DNA of 64,000 nt from a virus, in IMG/VR virus record IMGVR_UViG_3300050821_004478. One strand, 5' to 3'. This document shows positions 9,374 through 52,220 of this stretch, piece after piece. Within the stretch, counting starts at the first letter, position 1; each line of letters begins with the position of its first letter. The notes below the pieces were generated by a model. That model was given only the letters and a program-made list of their open reading frames with translations, searched no databases and was not told where the DNA came from. The translations under genes were made by a program, and so were the position numbers.

Positions 9374-9374
9374 C

Positions 9375-13116: not shown

Positions 13117-13145
13117 TTGCAAGAAAACTAGATCGGTGGTAGGCT
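13117..13145 (+). promoter_or_regulatory. Promoter GGTACCnnnGTACTA-TTGCAA-17-TAGGCT
   Basis: cggtaccaaagtactattgcaa gaaaactagatcggtgg taggct. Confidence 0.5.
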
Positions 13146-13151
13146 GGTTTT

Positions 13152-13372: not shown

Positions 13373-13382
13373 GGAGCGTACA

Positions 13383-14428: not shown

Positions 14429-14510
14429 AAAGTTTTACTAATTTTCAACGAGCAAGATCAAGCGGGGAGGGGCTACTTACACATAAAATGGAGCCTTAGG
14501 GGAGCACAAT

Positions 14511-15670: not shown

Positions 15671-15683
15671 AAACGAGGGACAT

Positions 15684-17327: not shown

Positions 17328-17335
17328 AATAGTAC

Positions 17336-17364
17336 TTGACAAGAGCCGGGAACTGTGATACACC
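17336..17364 (+). promoter_or_regulatory. Promoter AGTAC-TTGACA-17-TACACC
   Basis: ttgaca agagccgggaactgtga tacacc. Confidence 0.5.
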
Positions 17365-17406
17365 TAGTAAGATGAGGTCGCAGAGCGATCAGAAAGCAGG
17401 AACAAG

Positions 17407-18219: not shown

Positions 18220-18226
18220 AGTTTAC

Positions 18227-18296
18227 GCGGGGATAGTTCAACAGCAGAACAGCGGTCCAACCGTCGACAGTGGTTCGACTCCACCACCCCGCTCCA
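18227..18296 (+). tRNA. Compact tRNA-like element (70 nt incl. CCA), possible Trp(CCA) anticodon loop
   Basis: Acceptor GCGGGG/CCCCGC, D arm GTTC-AACAGCA-GAAC and T arm GTGG-TTCGACT-CCAC, ending TCCA. The anticodon arm only forms with an A-C mismatch (CAGCG-GTCCAAC-CGTCG). The variable loop is only 2-3 nt. Confidence 0.4.
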
Positions 18297-18313
18297 AGTT
18301 TATAGGAGAAAGG

Positions 18314-19354
18314 ATGACAGACGAGAAGTTAAAAAGTTACTCGGTGACGACTCCGCTTTTCGAGATCGAACCGAATAAGATCGAAGTCATACAAGTATCA
18401 GCAGGTGTAATGACCTACTACCAGAAGCAAATGTCGAAGGCAGTTTGGCGTCCCGCTTTTGGCCGCAAACTTGGTTTTCTAGTGGTTCACGGAGAGCACT
18501 TGCTGGGATTAATCTTTTTAGCCAGCCCGGTCCTCGCTCTCTCTGTGAGAGATGCCTATCTCTTCCCTGGCATGGCAAAGCAAGAGAAGGGAAAAGTAAT
18601 ACAGGGGTACATGGATATGAGCGTCTGCGTGGCCGCACAGCCGATTGGCTGGCACTGGAATCTCGGCAAGTTGATGGCGATGATCGCCTATACTCTCGGA
18701 GATTTTGTAGAGGATAGATATGGACAAAGCCTGATGGGTATCACGACTACATCGCTATTTGGCGGAAACAAGGCGACGCAGTACTCACGTATCTATAAAC
18801 ATTTGGGAGAGACGCAAGGAACCGGACACGAGGGCGTGGATGATGAGGTATATAAAAAGATGATGGCTTTCCTCCGTCTGCACTGCCCCAATTGTACAGA
18901 GGATTGTAAGAATCCTTTGCCTCTCGCGCCAACGAAAACGCAGGCTCACGACGGAGTAAATCAAGAAAAGTGGTGTACGGTTCCGGGTTGTGTGTGGCGA
19001 AAGGTGTGCTGCAAAGAGCACGGCAAGCCTATCGGAGACGGCGCGAGTCCGCGCAGACGCAGGATTGCCGCCTTCTTTAAGGCCCTTGAAGTACTAAACA
19101 TGACGCCTCTGGAGGCTCTCGGAGTAGAATTTATGGGCCACGATTTGGTTCAAATCAAGATCGAGAAGAAGGCGTCAACACACCACGGCAATAAGCGGGG
19201 TGTGTACTATCATACGGCAGTATCACCATCAGACCGTTCAAAGGTAATCAAGGACTGGTATGTTCGATTTGGTTCGCCGCGTTACGAGAAGACCGCAAGT
19301 TTGACACCTCCTTATTATAGCGGAGGAGCAAATCATAGGGGGACATACGCATGA
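18314..19354 (+). CDS. Hypothetical protein (346 aa), DUF4338-like N-terminal region
   Basis: 'FGRKLGFLVVHGEHLLGLIFLASPVLALSVRDAYL...QPIGWHWNLGK' resembles the DUF4338 core pattern (G-R-x-L-x-[YF]-LV...G...RD) as I recall it. A Cys-rich middle segment follows. Confidence 0.3.
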   Translation: MTDEKLKSYSVTTPLFEIEPNKIEVIQVSAGVMTYYQKQMSKAVWRPAFGRKLGFLVVHGEHLLGLIFLASPVLALSVRDAYLFPGMAKQEKGKVIQGYMDMSVCVAAQPIGWHWNLGKLMAMIAYTLGDFVEDRYGQSLMGITTTSLFGGNKATQYSRIYKHLGETQGTGHEGVDDEVYKKMMAFLRLHCPNCTEDCKNPLPLAPTKTQAHDGVNQEKWCTVPGCVWRKVCCKEHGKPIGDGASPRRRRIAAFFKALEVLNMTPLEALGVEFMGHDLVQIKIEKKASTHHGNKRGVYYHTAVSPSDRSKVIKDWYVRFGSPRYEKTASLTPPYYSGGANHRGTYA

Positions 19355-24966: not shown

Positions 24967-26149
24967 AGTCTTGATCGACTTTGAATCGCGCAGCACCTTC
25001 TCTCCTTCCGACCGGGGACTGTATAACTACATCTTCTCGCTGGATACAGAACCTTTATTTTTGTGGTACCGAATCGGCACGGGCGACTATAAATGCTGGC
25101 GTATCTGGGAAGGCGAGAAGATACATGATGAATTATGGCAGGCAGCGAATCATCCGGACGCATATTTCGTAGCCTTCAATTCTTGCTTTGAACGTTATAT
25201 GTTTCAGAAGCTGCATCATGAAATCCCGGCCAGCCGTTTCATCGACCCCCAAGTCGGTGGTCGCTATCTCTCGCTCCCGGCCAGCCTGGAGGTGCAGTGC
25301 GAAGTCCTAGGCGTGCCAACGCACTTGGCAAAGGATGCACGCGGAGACGCGCTGATTAAACTGTTCTGCGACAAGGTCATCGTGACGGCAACGAAGAAGA
25401 GGGAAGGCCGCGAATACTACAACGATTGGAATTCGCATCCTAAAGAATGGGCAGAGTTTCTCGAATATGGACGGCAGGACTTGATCGCGGAAGGTGAGCT
25501 ACTCAGACGCATGCGAATCTTGAAGGCGCTGCCGCTGCCTGAATTTGAACAGAAGCTGTGGCTCTTCGATCAGACGGTGAATGATCGCGGGATGCCGGTG
25601 GACGTGGAATTCGTTCGTAAGATGTATGCGCTGGCCATTCGCGCGAAGGAAGAGGCCAAGTTGAACTTCGAAAAGATGACCGGCGTAACGAATGCGAATT
25701 CACCCACCCAGGTTAAGGCGTGGGCCAAGACGCAGGGCTATCCGTATGGCACCATCCGTAAGGATACGGTCACATCGGTCTTGAAGGACCCGGACATCAA
25801 GTTGACAGACGCGTGCCGCGCCGCGCTAAAGATGCGCGCGGAAGCGGCCAGCACGAGCTATCAAAAGCTGGGCAAGATATTGGAATCAGTTTCACCTGAT
25901 GGGAGGTTACGTGGGCAGTTTATTTTCCTCGGCAGCCCTCGCTGTGGTAGATGGTCTGGTACGGCTGTACAACTTCATAATTTGGCACGTCCACTGGTTG
26001 TGGGAGGCCACGATTTCGAAGATCAGAAGGTAGTTCAAGATGCTCGCGCAATGGTATACGCGGAAGATTACGAAGGCATTAAAGCAAAGTATCTGAGCGT
26101 CTTGCTGGTGGTGAAGTCGTTAATCCGTACGGTGTTCGTCACATCATGA
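24959..26149 (+). CDS. Family A DNA polymerase, N-terminal part (3'-5' exo + thumb, ends just before motif A)
   Basis: 'IDFESRS' and 'AFNSCFERYMF' are exo motifs. 'GRLRGQFIFLGSPRCGRWSGTAVQLHNLARP' is the PolA 'TGRxS...NxQNxP' block. Ends '...SLIRTVFVTS' at a TGA. Confidence 0.75.
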   Translation: MIEVLIDFESRSTFSPSDRGLYNYIFSLDTEPLFLWYRIGTGDYKCWRIWEGEKIHDELWQAANHPDAYFVAFNSCFERYMFQKLHHEIPASRFIDPQVGGRYLSLPASLEVQCEVLGVPTHLAKDARGDALIKLFCDKVIVTATKKREGREYYNDWNSHPKEWAEFLEYGRQDLIAEGELLRRMRILKALPLPEFEQKLWLFDQTVNDRGMPVDVEFVRKMYALAIRAKEEAKLNFEKMTGVTNANSPTQVKAWAKTQGYPYGTIRKDTVTSVLKDPDIKLTDACRAALKMRAEAASTSYQKLGKILESVSPDGRLRGQFIFLGSPRCGRWSGTAVQLHNLARPLVVGGHDFEDQKVVQDARAMVYAEDYEGIKAKYLSVLLVVKSLIRTVFVTS

Positions 26150-26158: not shown

Positions 26159-26365
26159 ATGACATTCACAGGATTCGATGAAAAAGACGGAGAGCCTTTG
26201 TACGATACGAAGGAAGCCGCCATTGAAAGAGCTAGACAGATGATAGCCTGGAGCGGCGAACCCGACACGCAAATATGGGTTCACCGCAAAGGCTTTCCTC
26301 TGTGGCTCGCGCACCTGATTTGCGAAACGCCGCTTCGACGGCTGGCGTACACGAGGCTAAAGTGA
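26159..26365 (+). CDS. Intervening small ORF inside the split polymerase (68 aa)
   Basis: GAGGAGG SD 4 nt upstream. Same frame as the N-terminal pol part, separated from it by TGA plus 3 codons. Stop overlaps GTG 26362 (GTGA). Confidence 0.5.
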   Translation: MTFTGFDEKDGEPLYDTKEAAIERARQMIAWSGEPDTQIWVHRKGFPLWLAHLICETPLRRLAYTRLK

Positions 26366-27504
26366 GCACTCGCTTCAATGTCTGCGACTTGAACGGTATT
26401 GAGACTCGCGTCTCCGCGTGGCTCTCGGGCTGCACCGACTTGATGAATGTATTCGTCCCTTACACAGATCAGTTTGGAGTATATTGGCGGAACGGTCGGG
26501 ACCCATACATCGCCTTCGCGGCGAAGATGTTTGGCATGAGTTACGATCACCTTTGGGCCGACTACACGGGAAGGAACGGCAAGGAACGCAAGCTGGCTGC
26601 GAAGCGCATGCGCCAATTGGCGAAGCCGGGAGTGCTGGCCGCCGTCTACCGTCAATCGGGCGGCGGATGGGGCAAAAGTCCAAACGCGTACAAGGACCAC
26701 GGCGACCTTTGCAATGCCGACGATACATACGTCCAGCAGAATGGGAAGGTCAAGAAGATAGGCAAGAAGTACTGCTACTGCGAAGAGGTCCGCGACCGCG
26801 TCAAGACCGGGCTTTGGGGTTACGCGGATAATATGGGTGTGGAGATGTCGCAGGAACAGGCGGCGGAAGTTGTGCGTATCTTCCGAGACTCTTATCCAGA
26901 AATATGTGACCCTAAAACTGGAATCTGGAAACAATTCGAGGTCGCGGTCGCAGACGTGATGCACCCAGACCACCCGGCCACCTCCCGCCGTCTAGGTCCA
27001 GGCGGCTGCGTGGTAATTGACCGTGTCAACTTCATCGACGCAGCGGGCAACAAGGAACGGGAGCCGATGATGAGGATGCGGCTGCCCAGCGGGCGGTACC
27101 TCCACTACTTGGATGCGCGCCTGGAACTGACGATGATGCCGTGGAAGACACAGGACGACGAGGGCAGCGAGATCGACGTCTACCGCGACTCGCTCATTTA
27201 CGCGGGCATGAACCAGAAGACCAAGCAGTGGTGCAACAGCATATCCACCCACGGCGGGCACACATTTCAGAACGCAGTACAAGGAATCGCGCGCGACGTC
27301 TTGGCGGTGAAGCTGCTCGAATTCGAGGCCGCAGAGATGCCAGTCATCGGCCACGTTCACGACGAGGGAATCTGCCAAGTCGAAGACGATTTACTCAGCC
27401 CGACGTATCACGACATGGTCGAGATCATGAGTAAGGAAGTTGAGTGGGCACCCGGCCTCTTGTTGGGCGCGGACGGTTTTCAAGGAACGTATTATCACAA
27501 GTGA
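26362..27504 (+). CDS. Family A DNA polymerase, C-terminal part (motifs A, B, C); alternative start ATG 26275
   Basis: 'FNVCDLNGIETRV' is motif A, 'RQLAKPGVLAAVYRQSGGG' is motif B and 'IGHVHDEGI' is motif C. The GTG has a GAGG SD and is coupled to the upstream ORF. Confidence 0.75.
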   Translation: MSTRFNVCDLNGIETRVSAWLSGCTDLMNVFVPYTDQFGVYWRNGRDPYIAFAAKMFGMSYDHLWADYTGRNGKERKLAAKRMRQLAKPGVLAAVYRQSGGGWGKSPNAYKDHGDLCNADDTYVQQNGKVKKIGKKYCYCEEVRDRVKTGLWGYADNMGVEMSQEQAAEVVRIFRDSYPEICDPKTGIWKQFEVAVADVMHPDHPATSRRLGPGGCVVIDRVNFIDAAGNKEREPMMRMRLPSGRYLHYLDARLELTMMPWKTQDDEGSEIDVYRDSLIYAGMNQKTKQWCNSISTHGGHTFQNAVQGIARDVLAVKLLEFEAAEMPVIGHVHDEGICQVEDDLLSPTYHDMVEIMSKEVEWAPGLLLGADGFQGTYYHK

Positions 27505-28822: not shown

Positions 28823-29503
28823 ATGAATCGACAAATTTTATCAAAATATGATAGTTCAAAAGTTCTTTATCAAGCGGAAGCAGAAAGTTTTGCTGCGCTA
28901 ATCTTAGCCGCTATTAAATCCGGCGCGAACCTGCGCGGCGCGAACCTGTCCGGCGCGAACCTGTCCGGCGCGGACCTGTCCGGCGCGGACCTGTCCGGCG
29001 CGGACCTGTCCGGCGCGGACCTGTACGGCGCGAACCTGCGCGGCGCGAACCTGTACGGCGCGAACCTGTACGGCGCGAACCTGCGCGGCGCGGACCTGCG
29101 CGGCGCGGACCTGTACGGCGCGGACCTGTCCGGCGCGGACCTGTACGGCGCGGACCTGTACGGCGCGAAAAATGCAGAATTGGTATGGGCACAAACATCC
29201 ATCGTTCCAGATCACGGCCCGCTTTTTGGATGGAAAATATGTGAAAATAATGTTCTTGTCCGGCTATTCATTCCTTCCAAGGCCCGTCGATCTAATGCGA
29301 CCGGGCGTAAGTGCCGTGCAGAGCGAGCAAAAGTGCTCGAAGTTATCGGCGCAGAAATTGGTATTTCTAAACATGACTCTACATTCACCTACAAAACAGG
29401 GCAGTGGGTACGAGCCGATAAATGGGATGAAAATCGCTGGGAAGAATGCTCTGGTGGAATTCACTTTTTTCTAACTCGTATTGAAGCGGAAAATTACAAA
29501 TAG
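28823..29503 (+). CDS. Pentapeptide-repeat protein with C-terminal GIHFF domain (226 aa)
   Basis: About 17 consecutive A(N/D)L(S/R/Y)G pentads. The C-terminal '...[18 protein letters not shown]' resembles the domain that follows pentapeptide repeats in some viral proteins. Confidence 0.8.
28921..29168. repeat. Near-perfect 15-bp tandem repeat (~16.5 units) cggcgcg(a/g)acctg(tc/cg/ta)
   Basis: Seen directly in the sequence. It encodes the pentapeptide array and generates spurious antisense ORFs. Confidence 0.95.
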
Positions 29504-35651: not shown

Positions 35652-35974
35652 GCGACTCTCTTCTCATTGTACCAATTGGAGTACCTCTTGACCCGCATCA
35701 AGATATAATCGGGAAGCACACGCACCTCTTTGCAAAGCGGGAGAATTTCACGCCGCCAACTAATGACGCACGAGATTGTATTTGCGGAGGCGGCAAGATT
35801 GGTGCTACGAGCCGCTCGTTGATCGCTAACTGCCCATGCTGCGACGGTGTGCAGCTTTTAGTTGTGGATACTTGTGATTGCGATGACCCGAGTTTCATCA
35901 AATTTCGAGCGGTACTGCCGCCTGATATGAAGATGAGAATCAGGCGCATTGAGACAGCGGAGCCGATATGCTAA
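35648..35974 (+). CDS. Cys-rich hypothetical protein (108 aa)
   Basis: ORF track with coupling. Confidence 0.5.
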   Translation: MSDSLLIVPIGVPLDPHQDIIGKHTHLFAKRENFTPPTNDARDCICGGGKIGATSRSLIANCPCCDGVQLLVVDTCDCDDPSFIKFRAVLPPDMKMRIRRIETAEPIC

Positions 35975-36753
35975 AAGATATTACCATTGTCATTCCGACC
36001 TTCCACCGCCGAGGCTATCTGCGGGACTGTCTCGATGGGATTCAAAAGAACTTGCCTGAGTGTCAAGTGAGAATTGCGCAAGACGATGATGGCGACTGCA
36101 CGCTGGAACAAAGCGCATACAACACGTATTATTGGGCGAAGCTGCCGTACGACAGCGGTCTCACCGCGAAGCGCAACGCGGCGGTTAGATTAGTGGATAC
36201 GCAATATACATTAATGGGCAGCGATGACTTCGACTTTTCTACGCCAGAAGTACGAGAAGGTATCATCCGGATGGTCCGGATACTGAAATCATCCGAGATC
36301 GATATAGGGCGAGAGATCGACGTGGTCGCCGGAAGGGTCAATGACCGCTCTTACGAAGGATTCCTTGAGTACGTCCCAGGTGAGTATATCAAAGAGCACG
36401 CTCTTCGCAATGAACTTCCGTTCAGGTTGAAGCCGTTCGTGCTGTGGGAGATCGATATCGCTGCGAATTACTTCCTGGCCCGCACCGAAGTTCTACGAGC
36501 TATGCCGTGGGACGAGAGCATTAAGCCAATAGGAGGGGAACATGCGGATTGGTTCCTCGACTTAAAGGAAGCGGGCATGAAGGTAGTATTCTCATCGCCG
36601 TATGCAAATATCAATCAGATACCGTACGACGCGAGCAAGCAGCACCCGGATTACAACAAACTTCGCTGCCGCGCTGTTACGACCGGCCACGCGCTGATGA
36701 TGAAGAAGCGCAACATCAAGCACTACTACGGATTTGATGAGCAAGTAAAATAG
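35968..36753 (+). CDS. Glycosyltransferase, GT-A fold (GT2-like) (261 aa)
   Basis: 'ITIVIPTFHRRGYLRDCLDGI' N-terminus. 'LMGSDDFDF' is an acidic DxD-type motif. Confidence 0.6.
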   Translation: MLKDITIVIPTFHRRGYLRDCLDGIQKNLPECQVRIAQDDDGDCTLEQSAYNTYYWAKLPYDSGLTAKRNAAVRLVDTQYTLMGSDDFDFSTPEVREGIIRMVRILKSSEIDIGREIDVVAGRVNDRSYEGFLEYVPGEYIKEHALRNELPFRLKPFVLWEIDIAANYFLARTEVLRAMPWDESIKPIGGEHADWFLDLKEAGMKVVFSSPYANINQIPYDASKQHPDYNKLRCRAVTTGHALMMKKRNIKHYYGFDEQVK

Positions 36754-36761
36754 GAGGCAAC

Positions 36762-36959
36762 ATGAAGATCAAGAGACAGAAGAAAGTGAAGCCGATCACG
36801 ATTGGCTCGGTAGTTCAATTGAAGAGTGGCGGGTCGCTTATGACAGTGGTCAGCGCCGTCTCAAACCCTAACCCAATTCTCACCGTAATTTGGGAAGCCG
36901 ATGACTCACGTCTCGCGAAGTCCGAGATTCCCATTCAAGCACTTCGACTGGTGCGCTAA
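36762..36959 (+). CDS. DUF2158 (YodC-like) small protein (65 aa)
   Basis: 'IGSVVQLKSGGSLMTVV' matches the GDxVxLKSGGPxMTV signature. Confidence 0.55.
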   Translation: MKIKRQKKVKPITIGSVVQLKSGGSLMTVVSAVSNPNPILTVIWEADDSRLAKSEIPIQALRLVR

Positions 36960-37912
36960 TGGACCTCGTCCTTTTCCACCAAAATTGTCCTGATGGTTGG
37001 GCGGCGGCCTACATCTGCAAGATGAAGTATCCGGAAGCAGAACTGTTGCCGCTGAATCACGGTCTTAACGATAACCAGCTTAATTCGCTATTCAATATCT
37101 GCGCAGGCAAAGATGTCATCATGGTTGACTACTCGCTCCGCACTCGTGAGTTGAATGACCAACTAAATTTGGTCGCGAAATCGTTCCGCATCCTCGACCA
37201 CCACAAGACAGCCCAGGCTGCGCTCAACGGCGCAGAGTACGCCACATTCGACATGAAACGCTCGGGCGCGGGACTTGCGTGGGATTATCTCTTCGGCAAA
37301 GATTGTAAAGATCGTCCCGCTCAGAGTTTGGATAAACCGGGCGGCGTGATGTATATGTTTGAATCGCGTCCGTGGTGGGTGAACTACACCGAAGATCAAG
37401 ACCTCTGGAATTGGGCGTTGCCTGATTCACAACTCATCAACGCGTGGCTGATGGTTCAACCACGTACTATGGAAACGTGGGATATTATCCAAAACAAAAT
37501 TTCCGCAAACGACGCGCGACGCAGCGGTATGGGCGTCCGCGAATACATCGAATACTATACCCGCTCCGTAGTCGCGGAGGCGCAGGAAGGTGTGTTCGAA
37601 GGCTACAAGACTGGCGTACTAAACATCCCGTACGTCGGAGTAAGCGAGGCAGGCGCGGCGCTGATCGACAAGGGCTACGATATCGGCTTACTGTGGTTCG
37701 AACGCGGCGACGGTATCACGCAGTTTTCTCTCCGCAGCTTACACAGTGGCAACGTAGACGTGAGTGCAATTGCAAAGAAGTACGGGGGCGGCGGCCACGG
37801 AACAGCCGCAGGCTTCCAGCTATCTATGCCGGAAGGCCGCATTTTAGTTGACAAAATTCTGAATCGAATCACTTACACCACATTCGTTCAGCCAGGAGGA
37901 TGTGTAAAATGA
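36959..37912 (+). CDS. DHH/DHHA1-family phosphoesterase (317 aa)
   Basis: 'FHQNCPDGWAAA', 'ILDHHKT' (DHH) and 'YGGGGHGTAAGF' (the DHHA1 GGGH motif). Confidence 0.65.
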   Translation: MDLVLFHQNCPDGWAAAYICKMKYPEAELLPLNHGLNDNQLNSLFNICAGKDVIMVDYSLRTRELNDQLNLVAKSFRILDHHKTAQAALNGAEYATFDMKRSGAGLAWDYLFGKDCKDRPAQSLDKPGGVMYMFESRPWWVNYTEDQDLWNWALPDSQLINAWLMVQPRTMETWDIIQNKISANDARRSGMGVREYIEYYTRSVVAEAQEGVFEGYKTGVLNIPYVGVSEAGAALIDKGYDIGLLWFERGDGITQFSLRSLHSGNVDVSAIAKKYGGGGHGTAAGFQLSMPEGRILVDKILNRITYTTFVQPGGCVK

Positions 37913-38622
37913 CCTTACTCGTTGCTGTTAAGTCGTGCCGCGCTGACTTAGATCGCGGCTACCACGATGTGATTCGCGCGACCTGGGGCCAAGACTTGAG
38001 GAACCGAAACGTCTTAGTCCGGTTCTTCGTAGGTCATACCGGGGCGGATTATTTTCTAGCGCACCCCAAGGCCGACGCTCGGACGTTGAAGAGCGACGAG
38101 GTTGTCGCAGATAGCGCGGATGATTACGACGCGTTGCCTTTCAAGGTCCGCTCAATCTGTCATTGGGTGACCACCAAGAATATCGACCACGTTTTTCTCT
38201 GCGACACAGATACTTATGTGAATGCAAGCAGGCTTCTGACGTGCGGATATCGGAGATTTGACTATGCTGGTAAGATCAGCAAGCCAATTGGCGAAACTTT
38301 TCCTTACGACGCGGTTGACCGTCGCGGCGTTACTACGCATATCGCTGAGTGCCACCCGTGGGCTAGCGGTGGTTACGGTTACTTCCTATCTAGGGAGGCG
38401 ATGTTCTTGATCTCAGATTCTTATCCTAAGGGGTGGGCAGAAGACTTGTGGGTTGGACAAGTATTAGGGCCAGAATTCGCTAAGGGCGACATGCTCGCGC
38501 TCGATCTACCAGCGGGCGCTTACTCGCAGCACTTCCCGCAATTGAAGTACGGGTCCGGTTATGACCCGAAGCTGAAGTGGATGGAAGCTGCGCACCTAGT
38601 GAACAAGACGGTGAACGGATGA
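37909..38622 (+). CDS. GT31-like (Fringe / beta-1,3-glycosyltransferase-type) glycosyltransferase (237 aa)
   Basis: AGGAGGA SD. Motifs 'VIRATWG', 'DDYDALPFKVRSICHWV', 'FLCDTDTYVN', 'ASGGYGYFLSREA' and 'AEDLWVGQVL'. Confidence 0.65.
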   Translation: MTLLVAVKSCRADLDRGYHDVIRATWGQDLRNRNVLVRFFVGHTGADYFLAHPKADARTLKSDEVVADSADDYDALPFKVRSICHWVTTKNIDHVFLCDTDTYVNASRLLTCGYRRFDYAGKISKPIGETFPYDAVDRRGVTTHIAECHPWASGGYGYFLSREAMFLISDSYPKGWAEDLWVGQVLGPEFAKGDMLALDLPAGAYSQHFPQLKYGSGYDPKLKWMEAAHLVNKTVNG

Positions 38623-39305
38623 AGACCGCGCTTTTAGTTATAGCCACAGGAGAGCGATATCACCAGTATGTTAATCCACTGCTGGAGTCTGCTAAAGAAT
38701 TTTTCGTGGAGCACGACGCGTTCTTATGGGCGGACGAACTAATTCCCAGCATCGCGAAATTTCAACTTCAAAAGTATGCCTTGGGATTTCCAAACGAGAC
38801 GCTGTACAGATACCACACCTTCTTTGAACAGTATCAATTTCTTGAGAAGTACGACTACTTGTTTTACATCGACGTAGACATGCGATTCGTTGCCCCGGTA
38901 GGGGAGGAGATATTCTCTGATGGTATAACGGCCACGCTACATCCGGGCTATGTCGGCACACCGGGTACACCGGAGCGTCGCGCTGAGTCGATGGCAGTTA
39001 TTCCACAAGGAAGCAACAACAGGTATTTCTGCGGAGGTTTCAATGGCGGGACTTCGGGGCATTTTCTGCGCATGGCACAAGCTATAAAAGGAGCAGTCGA
39101 CGAAGATGCGAGTAGAGGAATCACAGCTATATGGCACGATGAATCGCACTTAAACAGATACCTATACTTGAATGGTCCAACGAAAGTTCTCGACCCGTCT
39201 TACTGCTACCCGGAGAACGCAGGTCCATACTACACAAGCAAGTGGAAGGCCGCAGGCTTGATTGTCACTCCAAAGATTCTGGCGTTAACCAAGGCGGGCA
39301 AATGA
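38619..39305 (+). CDS. GT6-family glycosyltransferase (ABO / alpha-1,3-Gal(NAc)T-like) (228 aa)
   Basis: Motifs 'LLVIATGERY', 'YLFYIDVDMRFV', 'ATLHPGY...PERRAES', 'YFCGGFNGGTSG' and 'ITAIWHDESHLNRYL...KVLDPSYCYPE'. Confidence 0.8.
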   Translation: MKTALLVIATGERYHQYVNPLLESAKEFFVEHDAFLWADELIPSIAKFQLQKYALGFPNETLYRYHTFFEQYQFLEKYDYLFYIDVDMRFVAPVGEEIFSDGITATLHPGYVGTPGTPERRAESMAVIPQGSNNRYFCGGFNGGTSGHFLRMAQAIKGAVDEDASRGITAIWHDESHLNRYLYLNGPTKVLDPSYCYPENAGPYYTSKWKAAGLIVTPKILALTKAGK

Positions 39306-40081
39306 TTACAGTGAAGCTGATGGGCGGGATGGGCAATCAGATGTTTCAATACGCTATGGGACTGGCGGTGGCGCGTCGCCTCGATACTCGCGTCCAGCTT
39401 GATACATCCCTCCTGGGAGTCAATCGACCTCTTGCTCTCCATCAGTGGAATATAGATGCTCTCCAATTAGCGCCCCGTCACGCTGCCACCGTTCACGAAC
39501 AAGGCATGCGGTACAATCAGGCGACAGTGGATAGCATTAAGGACGGCGACGTTCTACAAGGCTATTGGCAGAGCGAAAAGTATTTCTACGACCCGGATGC
39601 ATTGCGCGGCGAGTTCACACCGCTGACTTGGTCTATCAGATCGCGGGATTTATTGAAACAAATTTTTCAAAGCAATTCAGTCGCAGTTCATGTTCGTCGC
39701 GGCGACTATCTGAATGAACCGCACAAGAGTTTTCACGGCATACTCTCAGATAAATACTACGCCGATGCTATGACGCGCATTTGGCACGAGCGTGGACTCA
39801 GTGCTCGATTTTTCATATTCTCCGACGACATAAAATGGGTGAAGAGCAATTTTTCTTCCGAACCATTCACCTTTGTGGAACCAGGCACCGAATCAGAAGA
39901 TATTTACCTGATGTCGATCTGCAACCACGCGATCATCGCTAACAGTTCTTTCTCGTGGTGGGGCGCGTGGTTGGGCGACAAGCAAAAGAACCGCACGGTG
40001 ATTGCTCCCGCAAAGTGGTTTGCTGACGGGTCGGGAGAAGACTACTCAGATATCGTACCGGAGCGATGGATTAAAATATGA
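39302..40081 (+). CDS. GT11-family alpha-1,2-fucosyltransferase-like (259 aa)
   Basis: Motifs 'LMGGMGNQMFQYAMG', 'HVRRGDYL', 'FIFSDD' and 'NSSFSWWGAWL'. Confidence 0.85.
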   Translation: MITVKLMGGMGNQMFQYAMGLAVARRLDTRVQLDTSLLGVNRPLALHQWNIDALQLAPRHAATVHEQGMRYNQATVDSIKDGDVLQGYWQSEKYFYDPDALRGEFTPLTWSIRSRDLLKQIFQSNSVAVHVRRGDYLNEPHKSFHGILSDKYYADAMTRIWHERGLSARFFIFSDDIKWVKSNFSSEPFTFVEPGTESEDIYLMSICNHAIIANSSFSWWGAWLGDKQKNRTVIAPAKWFADGSGEDYSDIVPERWIKI

Positions 40082-42156
40082 AGACCGCTGTCATCCTAGT
40101 CGCGACAGGCGAACGTTACGCAGGGCACATCGCGCCGATGATCGCATCTCTGAGAGATTTCTTCCCACCGTGCGATATACTCTTGTTCACCGACAGCAAA
40201 GATTCTTTTGACGCAATCAAGTTTGATTATCTGGACCTGGGATGGCCGGACGCTACCATGATGCGCTATCACGCCATCTACGAGCAGCGGGGCTTCCTGC
40301 TGGCGTATGACCACGTTTATTACATGGACGTGGACTTACGGGTCGTCAGCAAGATAGCACTCGACGAAATTTTTGCTGGCGGAATCACCGCAGTCCTACA
40401 TCCGGGTTTCCCGGAGGCTTGGGAGCGTCGCCCGCAATCTGCCGCTTACGTCGGCAATGGCTCCACATATTATCAAGGCTGCTTCGTTGGTGGAAGCACC
40501 GGCGCATTTCTTCACATGTGCGCCAGTATAAGCAAGAGCATCGACGCAGACAATGAGAAGGGAATTACCGCAGTCTGGTTCGATGAATCGCACTTGAATC
40601 GCTATCTGCACGACAACCCGCCTGGAAAGGTCTTATCTCCCGCCTACGCTTATCCGGAAGGCTGGACCGGGCTGGTCCCCAAGATTCAGCACTTAGAGAA
40701 GCCCGACCAGTCTTGGAAGGATAGCAACAAGATCGTCAGAGGCTTTTGGTCTGGTCCAGAATTAACGAACATCCAGAAACTGTGCATCCGCTCTTACATG
40801 CGGCACGGCCATGAGTTCCACTTGTATGTAACACAGCCAACGGAAGGCATCCCGAAGGGAACGGTAGTCAAAGATGCAAACGAGATTCTACCCAAGTCTA
40901 GATTAGCGGAGTTTGACAACAGCGTGCACTTCTGCGACTACTTTCGGGTCCTCCTGATCTTGAGAGAGGGCGGCTGGTATGTAGATTTGGATACGGTGTG
41001 CCTGCGCAAACTAGACTTCCCGGAGCCTTACGCCTTCGTATCAGAAGAGAAATTGGGCGCTCGTCGATCTCCCGATACGGATGTCATCCCATCTTCCGAC
41101 AAAGTCCAAGAGTATCTCAGCGGCTGCGTCTTCAAGGCACCGAAGGACGCGGAAGTTTTGAAGTACATTGCCAACAAGATCGAGAGCATGGATAAGATGC
41201 ACCCGGAAAGTTGGATATCCTTCGGCCCCGCGCTATTCAAAGAGGCCGTCCCGAAATTCGGGCTGAGCAAATATGTCAAGGCCCCGATAGTACTCGATGC
41301 CATGCGATATGATGAGATGCTGCACTTCGTATCTCCCGGACTCAAGCGATGGAATTTCACAGACCGGTCTTACTTGATTCACTTGAGAACATCTGCCTGG
41401 ACCGACGGCGCTTTGGTGCCTAATAAAATATATCACCCGAGGTCTTTGTTTGAAGAACTGAAGGTCCGAAACAGCGTAGAGACCCGAGTATCCATAGTGA
41501 TTCCTTGCTACAACATGAAGGAGTATTTGAAAGAGACCATCGAATCGGCCTTGGCGCAGACTTACAGAAACTTCGAAGTGATCGTGGTCGACGACGGCTC
41601 GATGGACAATGTTCACACAGTGTCCCAGCAGTTCGTAGATTCAATCGTGTGGATACGACAAGAAAACCAGGGACTGAATGTGGCCCGCAATACCGGAGCC
41701 AAGGCCGCCACAGGCGATTTGCTCCTATTCTTAGACGCTGACGACTTACTCGACTCCCACTATCTTGAGAAAACCGTGCCGCTTATGAAGGCAGGCGTCG
41801 GCATAGTCTCAACGGATATGCAGTACTTCGGGTTATCCGACCTGCGAATACCGACCGCCGAGACTTTGGAGCAGCAGAAAGTATCCAATCAGATGCCGTA
41901 CTGCCGCCTCATCCTTCGAGAGGCTTTCGAGCAGGCCGGTGGATACAGCATGAATCTGGATATCTGGGCCTACGGTGATTGGAATCTTTCCTTAGACATT
42001 TTGAAGCGAACTTGGAAGTGCGCTGTCCTGCATGAACCGTTATTCAAATACCGGATGCGCCCCGGCTCGATGAGGAGCATAGCGGGCCAGACTCATGAGC
42101 AGATGTGCGCAGCGATTCGAAGAAATCATCCAGACATATTCCCGGAGGGAAAGTGA
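40078..42156 (+). CDS. Three-domain glycosyltransferase: GT6 + GT32-like (DXD sugar-binding) + GT2 (692 aa)
   Basis: aa 1-200 carry 'YYMDVDLRVV', 'HPGF..ERRPQSAAY', 'YYQGCFVGGSTG' and 'ITAVWFDESHLNRYL..KVLSPAYAYPE'. The middle has 'FWSGPELTNIQKLCIRSY...FCDYFRVLLILREGGWYVDLD'. The C-terminus has 'VSIVIPCYNMKEYLKETIESALAQTY..EVIVVDDGS..LLFLDADD'. Confidence 0.8.
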   Translation: MKTAVILVATGERYAGHIAPMIASLRDFFPPCDILLFTDSKDSFDAIKFDYLDLGWPDATMMRYHAIYEQRGFLLAYDHVYYMDVDLRVVSKIALDEIFAGGITAVLHPGFPEAWERRPQSAAYVGNGSTYYQGCFVGGSTGAFLHMCASISKSIDADNEKGITAVWFDESHLNRYLHDNPPGKVLSPAYAYPEGWTGLVPKIQHLEKPDQSWKDSNKIVRGFWSGPELTNIQKLCIRSYMRHGHEFHLYVTQPTEGIPKGTVVKDANEILPKSRLAEFDNSVHFCDYFRVLLILREGGWYVDLDTVCLRKLDFPEPYAFVSEEKLGARRSPDTDVIPSSDKVQEYLSGCVFKAPKDAEVLKYIANKIESMDKMHPESWISFGPALFKEAVPKFGLSKYVKAPIVLDAMRYDEMLHFVSPGLKRWNFTDRSYLIHLRTSAWTDGALVPNKIYHPRSLFEELKVRNSVETRVSIVIPCYNMKEYLKETIESALAQTYRNFEVIVVDDGSMDNVHTVSQQFVDSIVWIRQENQGLNVARNTGAKAATGDLLLFLDADDLLDSHYLEKTVPLMKAGVGIVSTDMQYFGLSDLRIPTAETLEQQKVSNQMPYCRLILREAFEQAGGYSMNLDIWAYGDWNLSLDILKRTWKCAVLHEPLFKYRMRPGSMRSIAGQTHEQMCAAIRRNHPDIFPEGK

Positions 42157-43148
42157 AAATTCTCATCACAGGTGGCGCAGGATTTATTGCCGCGCATTTT
42201 GTCGATCATGTTTTGAAAACAACTGATTGGGACGTCGTCCTTCTCGACAAGTTAACGTACGCATCGAATGGTCTCCAGCGTTTAATGGAGATCGGTGCAT
42301 GGCCTAACAATCCGCGCGTCAAGATTCACGTTGCAGATGTCGCGAAACCGCTGGGCAAGTGCCTGGAGGCAGAGATCGGCCACATCGACTACCTGCTTCA
42401 CATGGCAGCTGGGACCCATGTCGACCGCTCGATTGCGTGTCCCCGCGACTTTGTGGAGGCGAATATCTTCGGAACCTTCGAGATGCTCGAATACGCCCGC
42501 CGCATCCCAGGACTCAAAAAGTTCTTCTACTTCTCGACCGACGAGGTCTTCGGGCCAGCCAAAGTTGGAGAGGCATTCAGAGAGTGGGACCGCTACAATT
42601 CGACCAATCCGTATTCCGCAACAAAGGCCGGTGGGGAGGAATTGGCACTGGCGTGGTCTAACACGTACGGCGTCCCCGTAATCATCAGCCACACGATGAA
42701 CGTTTATGGGGAGCGCCAGCATCCGGAGAAATTCATCCCACGGGTGGTCAGCGCACTTCTCAACGGAAGGACCCTCGATATCCACGTTGACCCGGTGACC
42801 GGCAATCCCGGCACAAGAAATTACCTACACTGCCAGGACGTGTCCGAGGCCGTCATGTTTTTATTGGAGCGTGGACTGAACCGTGAGAAGTACAATATCA
42901 CAGGAATGCAAGAGTATTCGAATTTGCATGTCGCTAGAGTGATCGCGAAAGTCCTAGGAAGGGAACTAGCTTATCGCGAGATTTACCCTCAAACGATTCG
43001 CCCCGGCTTCGACGTTCGATACGGTATGGACGGCAGCAAGCTGGCCGCGATGGGATGGATGCCATCGAAAAGCCTTGACACCAATCTCAAAAATACGGTA
43101 GAGTGGATGGTGCGAGCAGAAAACAGGCATTGGCTGTATTTGAAGTGA
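42153..43148 (+). CDS. Extended-SDR NDP-sugar 4,6-dehydratase/epimerase (RmlB-like) (331 aa)
   Basis: GTG start after GGAGGG. Motifs 'ILITGGAGFIAAHF', 'FSTDEVFG' and 'YSATKAGGEELA' (YxxxK). Confidence 0.75.
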   Translation: MKILITGGAGFIAAHFVDHVLKTTDWDVVLLDKLTYASNGLQRLMEIGAWPNNPRVKIHVADVAKPLGKCLEAEIGHIDYLLHMAAGTHVDRSIACPRDFVEANIFGTFEMLEYARRIPGLKKFFYFSTDEVFGPAKVGEAFREWDRYNSTNPYSATKAGGEELALAWSNTYGVPVIISHTMNVYGERQHPEKFIPRVVSALLNGRTLDIHVDPVTGNPGTRNYLHCQDVSEAVMFLLERGLNREKYNITGMQEYSNLHVARVIAKVLGRELAYREIYPQTIRPGFDVRYGMDGSKLAAMGWMPSKSLDTNLKNTVEWMVRAENRHWLYLK

Positions 43149-43160: not shown

Positions 43161-43183
43161 AAACCCCCTCATTCGGGGGGTTT
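43161..43183 (+). terminator. Rho-independent (bidirectional-type) terminator closing the glycosyltransferase block
   Basis: aaa-ccccc-tcattc-gggggg-ttt. Confidence 0.8.
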
Positions 43184-45273: not shown

Positions 45274-46497
45274 ATGAAAAAGACCATCCTAGCATTAGTT
45301 TTTCTCGCATTTGCATCGCCCGCGTTCGCGTGGAATTGTAGCGACCCGCTTGCATCACGCGTCCCGGTAGTATCTGGCACGTCCGGTTCCTTCGGGAATG
45401 GAGACGGCCAACTGTTCCTTGGCACAGGTAGCGAAGGAACGAAAGGACAACTATACCAATGTCAAGTTCCGAAACCACCGGTAACACCGCCAACACCGCC
45501 TACGGTCAATCAATCGCAGAATCAGACGCAGAACTCCTCCGCAAACTCAAATGCGACTTCGAATTCCAGCGCGAATTCGAAATCTACCTCCAGCGTAACG
45601 GGGGGCAACTCGACAAGTACATCCACAGGTGGCTCCGCGACAGCTACGGGCGGGTCTTCGGTGGTGAAGAACAGTGGCAATTCCATATTGACCAACTCAG
45701 GGAATTCATCCAATACAAACAATACCACAGCAAACGGTGGTACGGGAGGTTCCGCGAGTTCATCAAACAATTCTGCCGGTAATGTCACCAGCTTCGTCGA
45801 CAATCAGGTCCGCCAGACGCCGATGGCATACGCTCCGGACGCGGCCTTCACCACGTCACCGTGCGTGAAAGGCTTCTCAGGTGGCGTATCTCTCCCGGGT
45901 GGCGCAGGCAGTCTAGGGGTGAGCAAGACCGACAAGGGTTGCGATTCCCGACAGACCGCAGTTGTTTTCTACGCACTCGGCAACAAGACCGCAGCGGCGA
46001 GGATACTTTGCAGCAGCGATGCTGCCAGACGCGCCAAGCTGACCTTGGATGATTGCCTAGCTATCGTGGTTCCGCCAGTCCCCCAGATCGTGGTCCCACA
46101 GCCCCCAGCAGCCCCTCAGCCGCAGGTTATCGTTGTACCAGCCCCACAACCCGTTCTGGCCCCGATAGCAGCCCAGCCGTCCCCAGACTGCAATCAGCCC
46201 AAGGCGGTTCCGGTTCACTATACCCGGGTCTGCAAGGCCAGTACCAAGATCGCGACTATCGGCTTTTGCAAACTTCACAACAGCATCCCAGACCCCGGCT
46301 GCTACGTAATTCTAGACGAAGCCGTGGGCGCAATTGGGGTAAATAATAATGCAAGAATTGTCTTGACAGGCCCGGTGGAATCTGGTAGAGTGGTCTTGTA
46401 CTTGAAACAGCACAAGATCAGTTTGAACCAGATCACCTTGAAGCTGGCAGACGATCAGAACGGGACGCTTACCGTCCAGACAGAGATCGGAGAGTAA
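45274..46497 (+). CDS. Secreted protein with long Ser/Asn/Thr/Gly low-complexity region and Pro-rich segment (407 aa)
   Basis: Signal 'MKKTILALVFLAFASPAFA'. About 100 aa of 'NQSQNQTQNSSANSNATSNSS...GGTGGSASSSNNSAGN', then 'PPVPQIVVPQPPAAPQPQVIVVPAPQP'. Confidence 0.65.
   Translation: MKKTILALVFLAFASPAFAWNCSDPLASRVPVVSGTSGSFGNGDGQLFLGTGSEGTKGQLYQCQVPKPPVTPPTPPTVNQSQNQTQNSSANSNATSNSSANSKSTSSVTGGNSTSTSTGGSATATGGSSVVKNSGNSILTNSGNSSNTNNTTANGGTGGSASSSNNSAGNVTSFVDNQVRQTPMAYAPDAAFTTSPCVKGFSGGVSLPGGAGSLGVSKTDKGCDSRQTAVVFYALGNKTAAARILCSSDAARRAKLTLDDCLAIVVPPVPQIVVPQPPAAPQPQVIVVPAPQPVLAPIAAQPSPDCNQPKAVPVHYTRVCKASTKIATIGFCKLHNSIPDPGCYVILDEAVGAIGVNNNARIVLTGPVESGRVVLYLKQHKISLNQITLKLADDQNGTLTVQTEIGE
46363..46391 (+). 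promoter_or_regulatory. Promoter TTGACA-17-TAGAGT (within the 3' end of the upstream gene)
   Basis: ttgaca ggcccggtggaatctgg tagagt. Confidence 0.45.
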
Positions 46498-51271: not shown

Positions 51272-51300
51272 TTGACAAACTTTCCGAACTGTGAGAGACT
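51272..51300 (+). promoter_or_regulatory. Promoter TTGACA-17-GAGACT (TGn extended) upstream of the integrase
   Basis: ttgaca aactttccgaactgtga gagact. Confidence 0.5.
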
Positions 51301-51320
51301 TGGTGCATGGAGAAAACAAG

Positions 51321-52220
51321 ATGACGTTTCAATCACAGGCTGAGACTTTCATGTCTGAAATTGCCCTTCGCAAAAGTGACCCCGCGAAAGTGAACACTTT
51401 GCGCGTCTATCGCTCCATCATCGACTTCCGTCTCCTACCTGCCATCGGCGGGCTGGAATTGCAGGAGGTCAACAACCGAACTGTCAAGGTACTCGTTGGC
51501 CGTCTCGCAGAGGCTGATCTGAGTCCCGCCACCATAACCTTGGCAGTCAGTCTCGTGAAGCAGGTTGTCAAGTCTGCGGTAGACGACGAAGGAAATCAAC
51601 TTTATCCCAGAACGTGGAATACCCGCTTTATCGACGCCCCGAAGATCGACAAATCAGCCCAGAGGACCCCAATTGCCACATCCCTGGCGCTGGGAGGCGC
51701 TGTGGCAGCCGTAAGGGGCGAAGTGGGGGGATTAGTGGCCCTCCTGGCTGGGACCGGCCTACGGGTCGGGGAGGCCCTTGCCATGCATAAGATCGACGAC
51801 GGGGTGTCCAACTATTGGGACCCGGCAGCCGGGACCATCGCGGTACGCGCGACCCTGGTCAACGGCAAGTTGCAAGACTCCACCAAGACCAAGGCCGGGA
51901 CCCGTATCGTGGACTTAGACCCGGCACTGAATAGCCTCCTGCATTCGGTATTCGCGATTCGCGATTCAAAAATATTTGTATCCTCGGAGCGCACTCTTCG
52001 CCGCCGCATAGAAGAACTCGGGCTAGAAGGTTTTCACTCCATGCGCCGCTTCCGCATCACCCACCTGCAAGCCGCGAGCGTCCCCGCGACCCTGGTGAAG
52101 TTTTGGGCCGGTCACGCGGCGGGCGATGTTTCTGAAAGATACACAAAATTTGGGGAGCAGATTATGGTCAGAAAAACATGGGCCGATAAGGCAGGTTTGG
52201 GGTTCGATCTTCATGCGTAA
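51321..52220 (+). CDS. int: Tyrosine recombinase / phage integrase (299 aa)
   Basis: GGAGAA SD. N-terminal SAM-like core-binding region. 'GLRVGEALAM', 'HSMRRFRITHL' and 'WAGHAAGDVSERYTK' give the R..HxxR..H..Y pattern. Confidence 0.85.
   Translation: MTFQSQAETFMSEIALRKSDPAKVNTLRVYRSIIDFRLLPAIGGLELQEVNNRTVKVLVGRLAEADLSPATITLAVSLVKQVVKSAVDDEGNQLYPRTWNTRFIDAPKIDKSAQRTPIATSLALGGAVAAVRGEVGGLVALLAGTGLRVGEALAMHKIDDGVSNYWDPAAGTIAVRATLVNGKLQDSTKTKAGTRIVDLDPALNSLLHSVFAIRDSKIFVSSERTLRRRIEELGLEGFHSMRRFRITHLQAASVPATLVKFWAGHAAGDVSERYTKFGEQIMVRKTWADKAGLGFDLHA

Follow-up and report, generated by a model that had tools for sequence, protein, structure and literature searches.

Background

Which glycan would a phage build with an array of glycosyltransferases (GTs) whose families recall how histo-blood-group antigens are made, and to what would it attach this glycan? 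The question is raised by a cassette of eight genes on the plus strand, at positions 35968-43148, of the IMG/VR virus record IMGVR_UViG_3300050821_004478, a stretch of 64,000 nucleotides (nt) that is called the window in the following. The cassette comprises seven GT domains and one nucleotide-sugar dehydratase, encoded in one translationally coupled run. An initial annotation, made by inspection of the letters alone, had taken it for an island that follows the logic of ABH synthesis, with a GT31-type enzyme, a GT11 fucosyltransferase and GT6 enzymes acting in succession, and had considered the decoration of a host glycan (lysogenic seroconversion) or of a protein as its probable role. From the analysis presented here, we tentatively propose a phage glycan assembly line that would work on cytoplasmic substrates and yield a fucosylated product resembling the H, A or B determinants on a phage acceptor, most likely a virion protein.

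Organization of the cassette

All eight co-directional open reading frames (ORFs) and their overlapping junctions were recovered at the positions of the initial annotation, and hidden Markov model (HMM) searches placed ORF2 to ORF8 in the families that it had named. The starts of ORF4 (37909), ORF5 (38619), ORF6 (39302) and ORF8 (42153) were refined according to the gene starts on record for an identical public contig. In order, the cassette encodes ORF1 (35968-36753; 261 amino acids, aa), a soluble GT-A enzyme related to B4GALNT1 (GT12-like) and the first enzyme of the cassette; ORF2 (36762-36959; 65 aa), a DUF2158 protein; ORF3 (36959-37912; 317 aa), a member of the DHH/DHHA1 phosphoesterase family; ORF4 (37909-38622; 237 aa), a GT31/Fringe-like GT-A glycosyltransferase; ORF5 (38619-39305; 228 aa), a minimal GT6 catalytic domain of the type called I below; ORF6 (39302-40081; 259 aa), a GT11 protein; ORF7 (40078-42156; 692 aa), a fusion of a type II GT6 domain with GT32 and GT2 domains; and ORF8 (42153-43148; 331 aa), an NDP-hexose 4,6-dehydratase of the RmlB type.

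The five junctions from ORF3/4 to ORF7/8 are 4-nt ATGA or GTGA overlaps, ORF2 and ORF3 overlap by 1 nt, and ORF1 and ORF2 are separated by an 8-nt gap that contains an AGGAGG. ORF1 in turn shares 7 nt with the phage gene upstream of it, which itself overlaps the one preceding it; the cassette therefore forms the distal end of a long run of co-directional genes and is no transcription unit of its own. Membrane segments are not predicted in any of the eight proteins. Throughout the 64-kb window no OR​F has more than four predicted membrane spans, so that genes of the Wzx, Wzy or phosphoglycosyltransferase (PGT) type are absent from it; this agrees with the earlier observation that flippase, polymerase, initiating transferase and lipid-carrier genes are missing.

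The 3' end turned out to be less clear-cut than the strong terminator formerly placed at 43161. A GC-rich hairpin (CCCCCTCATTCGGGGG; 43164-43179) begins 16 nt past the ORF8 stop and has an all-GC stem of 5-6 bp. On the plus strand the stem is followed by TTTCG, with just TTT as T tract, and the scan rates the hairpin terminator-like on the minus strand only. It is possible that it acts as a weak or bidirectional terminator.

Recurrence of the cassette in related phages

Twenty-five related loci, some of them near-duplicates, were collected from IMG/VR by means of the ORF4 family alignment and complemented by the loci L003, L007, L010 and L011. More than 300 proteins belong to the ORF4 family, many of them encoded on contigs of 50-115 kb. 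A scan of IMG/VR with the ORF7 fusion protein alone gave no confirmed relative. UvrD and PD-(D/E)XK nuclease genes lie upstream of the cassette in 17 of the 25 contigs, and the search for the same gene order that had been recommended initially thus found the cassette at a conserved position. L003 and L007 also keep the gene order, between nuclease and endolysin. A GT11 gene follows the GT31-like gene in 24 of the 25 loci, the sole exception being truncated, and an ORF1-type gene precedes the GT31-like gene in 19; GT6 is present in 12. The recurrent core of the cassette is therefore a GT12-like, a GT31-like and a GT11 gene, surrounded by variable outer genes. This holds for phages whose helicases are just 50-82% identical.

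The outer genes include enzymes of sugar supply. Relatives encode full-length GDP-mannose 4,6-dehydratase (Gmd), other short-chain dehydrogenases/reductases (SDRs), DegT-type sugar aminotransferases and a GT10-like enzyme, and many islands contain several GT31-like paralogs. The island of L035 (positions 10001-18944 of that locus, about 9 kb) combines five GT31-like paralogs, GT11, Gmd directly after GT11, an SDR, a DegT aminotransferase, a GT10-like protein and a GT2 protein; it may make sugars of the GDP-perosamine type together with fucose.

In 185,579 species-representative genomes, we encountered the ORF4 family at just seven loci. Two of these are free phage-like contigs that were binned into the metagenome-assembled genome (MAG) of an uncultured 'archaeon' and that carry phage UvrD, nuclease and endolysin genes; the other five are distant chromosomal genes of Planctomycetia. 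Integrated copies of the cassette were not detected in these genomes, where its hosts may be unsampled. One of the chromosomal loci, L014 (Planctomycetia MAG CAVPVK010000014.1; 8194-16303 of the locus), holds GT4, GT6, GT31-like and PMT_2 genes, an uncharacterised ORF and a second PMT_2 gene, adjoins an ABC-2 transporter, and is the sole cellular pair of GT6 and GT31-like genes that we found.

Two further groups of GT6 fusions were encountered. A different type of phage, represented by L004-L006 (contigs of 33-52 kb; 7277-12698 of the locus), has a cluster of GT2, GT11, two ORFs without assignment, a 565-aa GT6-GT31 fusion (P0029, on 66 contigs) and a polysaccharide pyruvyl transferase; the cluster adjoins C5 DNA methyltransferases, a D12 methylase and Vsr. 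The proteins P0072-P0108 are bacterial fusions of about 669 aa that join a Wzx-type flippase (PF01943/PF13440) to GT6, and one cluster of them has 380 members.

Two types of GT6 domains

ORF5 and the N-terminal domain of ORF7 match the GT6 profile of Pfam (PF03414, cut-off 25 bits) with 117.3 and 84.2 bits, respectively, the latter over aa 56-206. The GT6 motifs quoted in the initial annotation, and those quoted for GT11, are all present in the translations. Among solved structures, both phage GT6 domains match BoGT6a best; for ORF5, the search of the PDB gave 6e-33 with BoGT6a and about 6e-29 with the human transferases GTA and GTB. Residues were mapped by a MAFFT alignment to GTA, in a sequence identical to PDB 1lz0, which is less certain in its C-terminal part. 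R188, D211-V-D213, H233-P234, G235, W300, D302-E303 and K346 are kept in both domains. The catalytic DxD, the catalytic glutamate (E303 of GTA, E192 of BoGT6a; PMC3516806) and the acceptor-side residues, whose lack would have spoken against the family assignment, are present in both. The two domains differ around the catalytic glutamate, where ORF5 reads WHDE and keeps H301, whereas ORF7 reads WFDE with a phenylalanine at this position.

The use of 2'-fucosylated acceptors has been ascribed to a histidine at position A1 (H233), a small residue at A2 (G/S235) and the absence of tryptophan at A7 (A343) (PMC3516806). At A1, A2 and A7, ORF5 has H, G and A and the ORF7 N-domain H, G and H, in agreement with all three determinants. 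Both domains also have a YPE(G)W segment in common with BoGT6a, an enzyme that uses 2'-fucosyllactose (PMC3516806).

On the donor side, alignment to GTA confirmed the residues that had been read at positions 266-270, namely C-G-G-F-N in ORF5 and Q-G-C-F-V in ORF7. Across the loci, GT6 domains fall into two conserved types with different donor-site residues. Type I, the stand-alone form exemplified by ORF5, has [C/A]-G-G at 266-268 and comprises 17 distinct sequences, including one from a 642-kb phage and the Planctomycetia gene. Type II, the fused form exemplified by the ORF7 N-domain, has Q-[G/A]-C and is found in the fusion loci and in gp202 of Synechococcus phage Bellamy. Positions 266 and 268 are the classic determinants of A versus B donor specificity in GTA and GTB. 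Type I resembles the GalNAc-specific BoGT6a (A-G-G) and GTA (G268), and type II is bulkier at 268, as is the Gal-specific GTB. The existence of two conserved paralog types fits the earlier suggestion of two different donor sugars; ORF5 would probably add a HexNAc and the ORF7 N-domain a hexose.

A further difference concerns H301. At the corresponding position, type II domains have Phe, Phe and Tyr in the three loci with ORF8, and in no other, and His in L004 and in Bellamy. In the modelled complex of BoGT6a, the equivalent histidine contacts O6' of the donor (PMC3516806, Table 4). Because this donor-contacting histidine is replaced by phenylalanine, the ORF7 N-domain may take a 6-deoxy sugar provided via ORF8, although the replacement suggests such a donor only weakly.

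GT12-like ORF1 and GT31-like ORF4

ORF1 had been called GT2-like. A match to Glycos_transf_2 does exist in Pfam (17.7 bits), but it stays under the cut-off, and profile and structure comparisons point specifically to B4GALNT1, the GM2/GD2 synthase. The profile of the ORF1 family (26 members) matched human B4GALNT1 at E=4.5e-21, with the next match at 6e-7. The AlphaFold2 (AF2) model of ORF1 (pLDDT 92.6) likewise has B4GALNT1 as its top Foldseek match in the PDB (E=1.5e-17, TM 0.72), followed by the next family at 5e-11, so that GT12 is the nearest relative of ORF1 in sequence profile as well as in structure.

K284, N437, R457, Y501 and R505 have been described as UDP-GalNAc-binding residues found in GT12 only (PMC12217166). 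In the alignment to B4GALNT1, N437 corresponds to the invariant N167 of ORF1, R288 to R14 and D357/D358 to D86/D87. Y229-x3-R233 is spaced like Y501/R505, though it lies beyond the printed alignment, and for K284 and R457 no counterpart was matched in ORF1. Since the GT12-specific residues are matched or checkable only in part, we term ORF1 GT12-like and not a proven member of the family.

ORF4 matches Galactosyl_T (PF01762, GT31) with 39.6 bits against a cut-off of 23, over positions 4-105 of 195 of the profile alone. The motifs CDxDT, WASGGxGYxLS and EDxxxGQ are invariant in its family (25 members), whose profile matches B3GALT5, B3GNT2 and C1GalT1. With the AF2 model (pLDDT 93.5), the best 30 Foldseek matches are all GT31 proteins, among them B3GNT2, B3GalT6 and B3GalT5, with E-values down to 3.5e-11; besides galactosyltransferases, the structural neighbours include B3GNT2, Fringe and chondroitin synthase. 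We infer that ORF4 is a beta-1,3 transferase.

The remaining proteins of the cassette

ORF6 matches GT11 (PF01531) with 118.6 bits against a Pfam cut-off of 23.9, over profile positions 30-295 of 298, and contains the HVRRGDY motif; a sequence search of the PDB gave no solved homolog. By inference from its family, ORF6 would be an alpha-1,2-fucosyltransferase.

ORF7 is composed of a GT6 domain (aa 1-215), a GT32-like domain (about aa 216-460) and a GT2 domain (about aa 461-692). The GT2 match is strong (118 bits, aa 472-597), and that to Gly_transf_sug/GT32 (PF04488; 31.3 bits, cut-off 23) covers only the 35 residues at aa 279-313. Homologs of the GT32 domain are annotated as OCH1-like, Caps_synth or Gb3_synth. 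Full-length orthologs of ORF7 with 72-78% identity are found on contigs of 27-80 kb, and there are larger fusions of this kind, P0006 and P0007, with an additional GT31 domain. A giant-virus entry of the BFVD database, A0A5J6VM96 (958 aa), is labelled 'Glycosyltransferase family 6 [Megaviridae environmental sample]' and matches the GT31-like model; it is probably a multi-domain fusion of GT6 and GT31 like P0006 and P0007, and may be a misassigned phage protein.

ORF8 scores about 145 bits with GDP_Man_Dehyd/Epimerase of Pfam and 268.4 bits with TIGR01181 (RmlB), below the equivalog cut-off of 365.1. Its best PDB match is the dTDP-glucose 4,6-dehydratase 2hun (2e-58), with which the STDE and YxxxK motifs align. 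Close orthologs (77-83% identity) are restricted to L003 and L007. As both of these loci have an ORF7-type fusion, fusion and dehydratase seem to form a single sub-module.

ORF2 matches DUF2158 (32 bits), occurs in only 5 of the 25 related loci and is probably not a glycan enzyme. ORF3 matches DHHA1 (30.8 bits) and has the DHH (ILDHHKT) and GGGH motifs, with a weak PDB match to a DHH family protein. A DHHA1 gene is present in 11 of the 25 loci, and in many relatives it lies between the GT12-like and GT31-like genes.

Genomic context

The window is clearly of phage origin. It encodes an A1-like DNA transfer protein, a primase-polymerase, a split family-A polymerase, a UvrD helicase and a PD-(D/E)XK nuclease, further a GH108 endolysin, two endonucleases VII and a tyrosine integrase. 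The cassette is located directly 3' of the UvrD and nuclease genes and before the lysis genes. Proteins identical to those of the window are encoded on a 101,738-bp ENA contig (ERZ27253726, k141_2126788), whose start corresponds to window position 13432 and whose position 88167 corresponds to window position 1, as in a circular permutation. The remaining terminal overlap is exactly 141 nt in a k=141 assembly. This is the overlap expected for a circular sequence, and the cassette therefore belongs to a complete phage genome of about 101.6 kb and not to a chromosomal O-antigen locus. Our analysis covered about 72 of these 101.6 kb.

The tyrosine integrase (51291-52220, plus strand; phrog_1, 76 bits) is 8 kb away from the cassette, and the relative L003 has an integrase as well. 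At the nucleotide level, megablast of 20 kb found no relative among 50,697 phage records. The UvrD protein is at most 31% identical to that of cultured relatives, and the A1-like protein reaches 46% with Pseudanabaena phage Pan1, Dinoroseobacter phages and Rhodobacter phages. The distant chromosomal homologs are only a hint at Planctomycetia as host clade.

Several other features of this genome deserve mention. A tRNA-Pro(CGG) gene lies at 99-172 (minus strand). The protein encoded at 18314-19354 (plus strand; 346 aa) has a Druantia DruA domain (PF14236, E=1.7e-10), which is unusual in a phage. The family-A DNA polymerase is divided between two ORFs (24947-26149 and 26275-27504, plus strand) with a short gap between them; they match the consecutive parts 669-1001 and 1010-1232 of phrog_17, and public gene calls have a 68-aa ORF in between. 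A fusion of pentapeptide repeats and DUF5758, which may be a DNA mimic, is encoded in the replication module (28823-29503, plus strand). For two minus-strand proteins of the phage, of 1972 and 692 aa, no record was found.

Two kb downstream of the island, the gene at 45274-46497 (plus strand) encodes a mucin-like protein of 407 aa with a Sec-type signal peptide and proline-rich linkers but without family match. It has a low-complexity region of about 130 aa rich in Ser, Thr, Asn and Gly (36% S+T), and 14 N-X-S/T sequons in the whole protein. We considered this secreted protein as a conserved acceptor of the glycan and rejected it, because it is not kept in the related loci.

Proposed product and acceptor

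How could these enzymes work together? We suppose that they would act stepwise in the cytoplasm of the infected cell during lytic growth. The GT12-like ORF1 and the GT31-like ORF4 would place beta-linked residues of the GalNAc or Gal type, ORF6 would add alpha-1,2-fucose from GDP-fucose to give an H-like terminus, the two GT6 domains would add alpha-1,3 sugars onto the fucosylated galactose, and the GT32 and GT2 domains of ORF7 would extend or branch the chain. The order of GT31, GT11 and GT6 steps presumed in the initial annotation agrees with the adjacency of the GT31-like and GT11 genes in nearly all loci and with the Gmd gene beside GT11 in relatives; its linkages and sugars, however, are deduced from the families.

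The acceptor is the weakest step of this proposal. A phage product is slightly favoured over a glycan of the host envelope, since diverged phages keep the inner enzymes but vary in the outer ones, and O-antigens are hypervariable. The absence of carrier, flippase and initiating enzyme from the window, the lack of membrane anchors, the position of the cassette in a lytic gene run and the absence of integrated copies from bacterial genomes argue in the same direction, as does the analogy with virion glycosylation in mycobacteriophages and giant viruses.

Several observations weigh against the proposed product or its acceptor. To our knowledge, all characterised bacterial GT6 and GT11 enzymes act on lipid-linked envelope glycans, and the sole chromosomal counterpart that we found, L014, sits in an envelope-glycan locus. 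The phage has an integrase, so lysogeny is possible, and neither its structural module nor genes for GDP-fucose synthesis were found in the covered part of the genome. Family membership fixes neither linkage nor sugar, GT31 includes GlcNAc and GalNAc transferases and is thus mixed in its donor use, and the NCBIfam GT6 model nearest to ORF5, which stays under its cut-off, is named glucosyltransferase. Altogether, we hold an H/A/B-like glycan on a phage acceptor to be the reading to start from, with a confidence that remains tentative.

Alternative explanations

The same chemistry could be directed at a lipid-linked glycan of the host envelope, such as the lipopolysaccharide (LPS) core, an O-unit, the capsule or a glycolipid, at the inner membrane face. 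It would then serve superinfection exclusion, keep the progeny from sticking to debris or bring about lysogenic conversion. We regard this as a serious possibility, if short of a probable one. B4GALNT1 and B3GALT5 are animal glycolipid enzymes, in many bacterial proteins GT6 is joined to a Wzx-type flippase, and on the Planctomycetia chromosome the GT4, GT6 and GT31-like genes stand beside two PMT_2 enzymes of the GT-C fold and an ABC-2 transporter. The integrase would suit this reading as well, the bacterial GT6 enzymes that have been characterised produce blood-group antigens of the cell surface (BoGT6a, PMC3516806), and GT clusters of cyanophages are usually interpreted in this way (PMC12801897). 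However, Wzx, Wzy, ligase, PGT and Gtr-type genes are absent from the window and the enzymes are without membrane anchor. The cassette is coupled to lytic genes and does not form a separate moron beside int/att, its base composition is not atypical, and none of the 185,579 genomes has an integrated copy. Conserved initiating enzymes would moreover call for a host acceptor that is conserved as well, and O-antigens are hypervariable. The lysogenic seroconversion proposed at the outset does not find favour with these data: the cassette is part of the lytic run, at a distance from the integrase, and its close homologs in cellular genomes are confined to the two free phage-like contigs.

The acceptor might also be DNA. 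Phage enzymes of the GT-A and GT-B folds add mono- to trisaccharides to 5-hydroxymethylcytosine, and their clusters adjoin replication genes and sugar epimerases (Pyle et al., bioRxiv 10.1101/2023.12.21.572611). In such a hypermodification, the first enzyme of the cassette would attach a sugar to a hydroxymethylated base and the rest would lengthen the chain, for protection against nucleases. The location directly after the UvrD and PD-(D/E)XK genes would be in line with this, and the different phage with GT11 and the GT6-GT31 fusion has C5-methyltransferases and Vsr nearby. In contrast, neither a ThyS-type hydroxymethylase nor a TET/JBP dioxygenase nor a C5-methyltransferase is present in the covered part of the genome, GT6, GT11, GT31 and GT12 are families with glycan acceptors, and fucosyl units on DNA were not reported by Pyle et al. 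(bioRxiv 10.1101/2023.12.21.572611). We therefore consider DNA glycosylation by the cassette unlikely, and would give it little weight.

A different objection concerns the chemistry only and is compatible with every choice of acceptor. The product might be a fucosylated glycan that is not ABH-like in structure or antigenicity, with a resemblance to blood-group synthesis at the level of families only; ORF4 may add GlcNAc or GalNAc, and the GT6 domains glucose or other sugars to acceptors other than H. The structural neighbours of ORF4 (B3GNT2, Fringe, chondroitin synthase) and the name of the nearest NCBIfam model leave room for this, as do the low identity of the phage GT6 domains to GTA and GTB outside the active-site motifs and the lack of conservation of GTA D326. 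Both GT6 domains nevertheless have the published determinants for 2'-fucosylated acceptors (PMC3516806), they share the YPE(G)W segment with a 2'-fucosyllactose user, and GT11 is present in every complete locus that bears GT6, although the last point is weak as GT11 is nearly universal in the set. A product unlike ABH thus seems doubtful to us, if by no means far-fetched. That the cassette is an ordinary chromosomal polysaccharide locus joined to phage DNA by faulty assembly or binning can, on the other hand, be practically dismissed. The closest copies in NCBI are indeed binned in the MAG of an 'uncultured archaeon', but the contigs of this MAG themselves carry phage UvrD, nuclease and endolysin genes. 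Records of the identical fusion protein come from JGI, ENA and Logan sources, the ends of the contig join by a k-mer overlap, and the same phage genes flank the cassette in 17 of the 25 IMG/VR contigs.

Novelty and significance

Parts of this picture are already known, namely the GT6 clade of phages, GT11 in cyanophages, the SDR-GT11-GT6 arrangement of Bellamy and Fringe-like proteins of viruses. The novelty is smaller than the initial annotation had implied: the pair of GT11 and GT6 is already present in Bellamy and in two huge phages, and GT11 genes occur in many cyanophages. Phage GT6 and GT11 were also reported in a soil-virome paper, whose reading of them as auxiliary metabolic genes for carbon sequestration or glycosphingolipid metabolism we did not adopt, as it consists of KEGG pathway labels only (PMC12016548). 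In contrast, tblastn of ORF4 against cultured and deposited phages revealed no GT31-like gene of its family. A cassette of this kind that starts with a GT12-like enzyme was not found in the phage collection and literature searched, where 30% matches in Salinibacter phages were the only ones. The GT6-GT32-GT2 fusion was found in neither of the two, and the searched literature gave no description of a conserved, modular island of this kind in a phage lineage.

The cassette is of interest mainly because its chemistry can be read and because it bears on how GT6 evolved. A product or target is known for few phage glycosyltransferase islands, and the enzyme logic of the present one is unusually legible. 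The 2'-fucosyllactose assays that were used for BoGT6a and PaGT6 apply to the recombinant enzymes of the cassette. If the glycan were indeed on virions, virion glycosylation would extend beyond actinophages, and blood-group-like epitopes would exist on environmental phage particles. The conserved core with its variable outer enzymes also offers soluble, minimal GT6, GT11, GT31 and GT12 domains for glycoengineering.

It has been hypothesized that ABO-type enzymes of vertebrates arose from GT6 of the phage or Parachlamydia type by horizontal transfer (PMC3516806). Phage GT6 genes with GT11, GT31-like, GT12-like and GT32-like partners widen this question from a gene to a pathway, which can be tested by phylogeny. 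In its boldest form, the idea would be that widespread environmental phages possess a self-contained 'vertebrate-type' GT12/GT31/GT11/GT6/GT32 operon with its own sugar supply, that it coats their virions (or, less likely, their DNA) with H/A/B-like glycans, and that they are a reservoir from which GT6, and perhaps its partners, passed between prokaryotes and the ancestors of vertebrates. We regard this as a speculation with a small chance of being right.

Comparison with known systems

A clade of phage-type GT6 enzymes has been published before (Pham et al. 2012, PMC3516806), under the description 'minimal catalytic domain with D-X-D'. Like the enzymes of Prochlorococcus phage P-SSM2 and of Parachlamydia (PaGT6), ORF5 and the ORF7 N-domain are short, have DVD and are without the membrane-binding C-terminal domain; the P-SSM2 GT6 is 33-37% identical to both. 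PaGT6 is reported to add GalNAc to the H antigen and to need a metal (PMC3516806). Unlike this clade, the cassette has two paralog types, one of them fused to GT32 and GT2, in an uncultured lineage with another host. The closest arrangement in a cultured phage is that of Bellamy, where SDR, GT11 and GT6 genes (gp200-gp202) are adjacent and the GT6 is of the Q-G-C type, as in ORF7. However, Bellamy lacks the GT31-like gene, the GT12-like gene and the fusion, the identity is only 29-34%, and the proteins are annotated just as 'glycosyltransferase'.

Synthesis of blood-group antigens by bacteria is known from E. coli O86 and Helicobacter mustelae. The cassette resembles the BoGT6a system of Bacteroides ovatus in that GT6 would act on a Fuc-alpha-1,2-Gal acceptor made by GT11, and BoGT6a and the phage enzymes share A/C-G-G at the donor site as well as the YPEGW segment. 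GT6 enzymes of bacteria have NXN instead of DXD, are metal-independent and possess a membrane-binding domain (PMC3516806). Unlike the phage proteins, the bacterial blood-group enzymes combine NXN and this domain with O-antigen loci that contain Wzx and Wzy. Seroconverting temperate phages with gtrABC, Oac or Wzy-beta have the integrase in common with the present phage, whose cassette is without membrane-embedded genes and is no separate unit close to int/att.

In terms of families, the best solved or family-level matches of the phage domains are human B4GALNT1 (GT12), B3GALT5 (GT31), FUT1/2 (GT11), ABO (GT6) and A4GALT (GT32). The GT12- and GT31-like phage enzymes are 17-25% identical to the human ones, and the identity is higher only around the GT6 active-site motifs. 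Unlike the human enzymes, the phage proteins consist of catalytic domains only and have neither a stem nor a transmembrane region.

The glycosylation of virions by virus-encoded enzymes is the remaining comparison. Freeman et al. reportedly described glycans on the capsids and tails of mycobacteriophages in 2023 (cited in PMC12619734). Chloroviruses and mimiviruses have machineries that glycosylate their virions. The mycobacteriophage sets of GT2 and methyltransferases belong to other enzyme families than the cassette, whose phage is known here from its genes alone. In the giant-virus data of BFVD we found Fringe-like proteins, along with the GT6-labelled protein that matches the GT31-like model. 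With virus-encoded virion glycosylation the cassette and its relatives share soluble, multi-domain GTs, 4,6-dehydratases and aminotransferases; they would also share the action in the cytoplasm, independent of lipid carriers, and a glycan with a conserved inner and a variable outer part.

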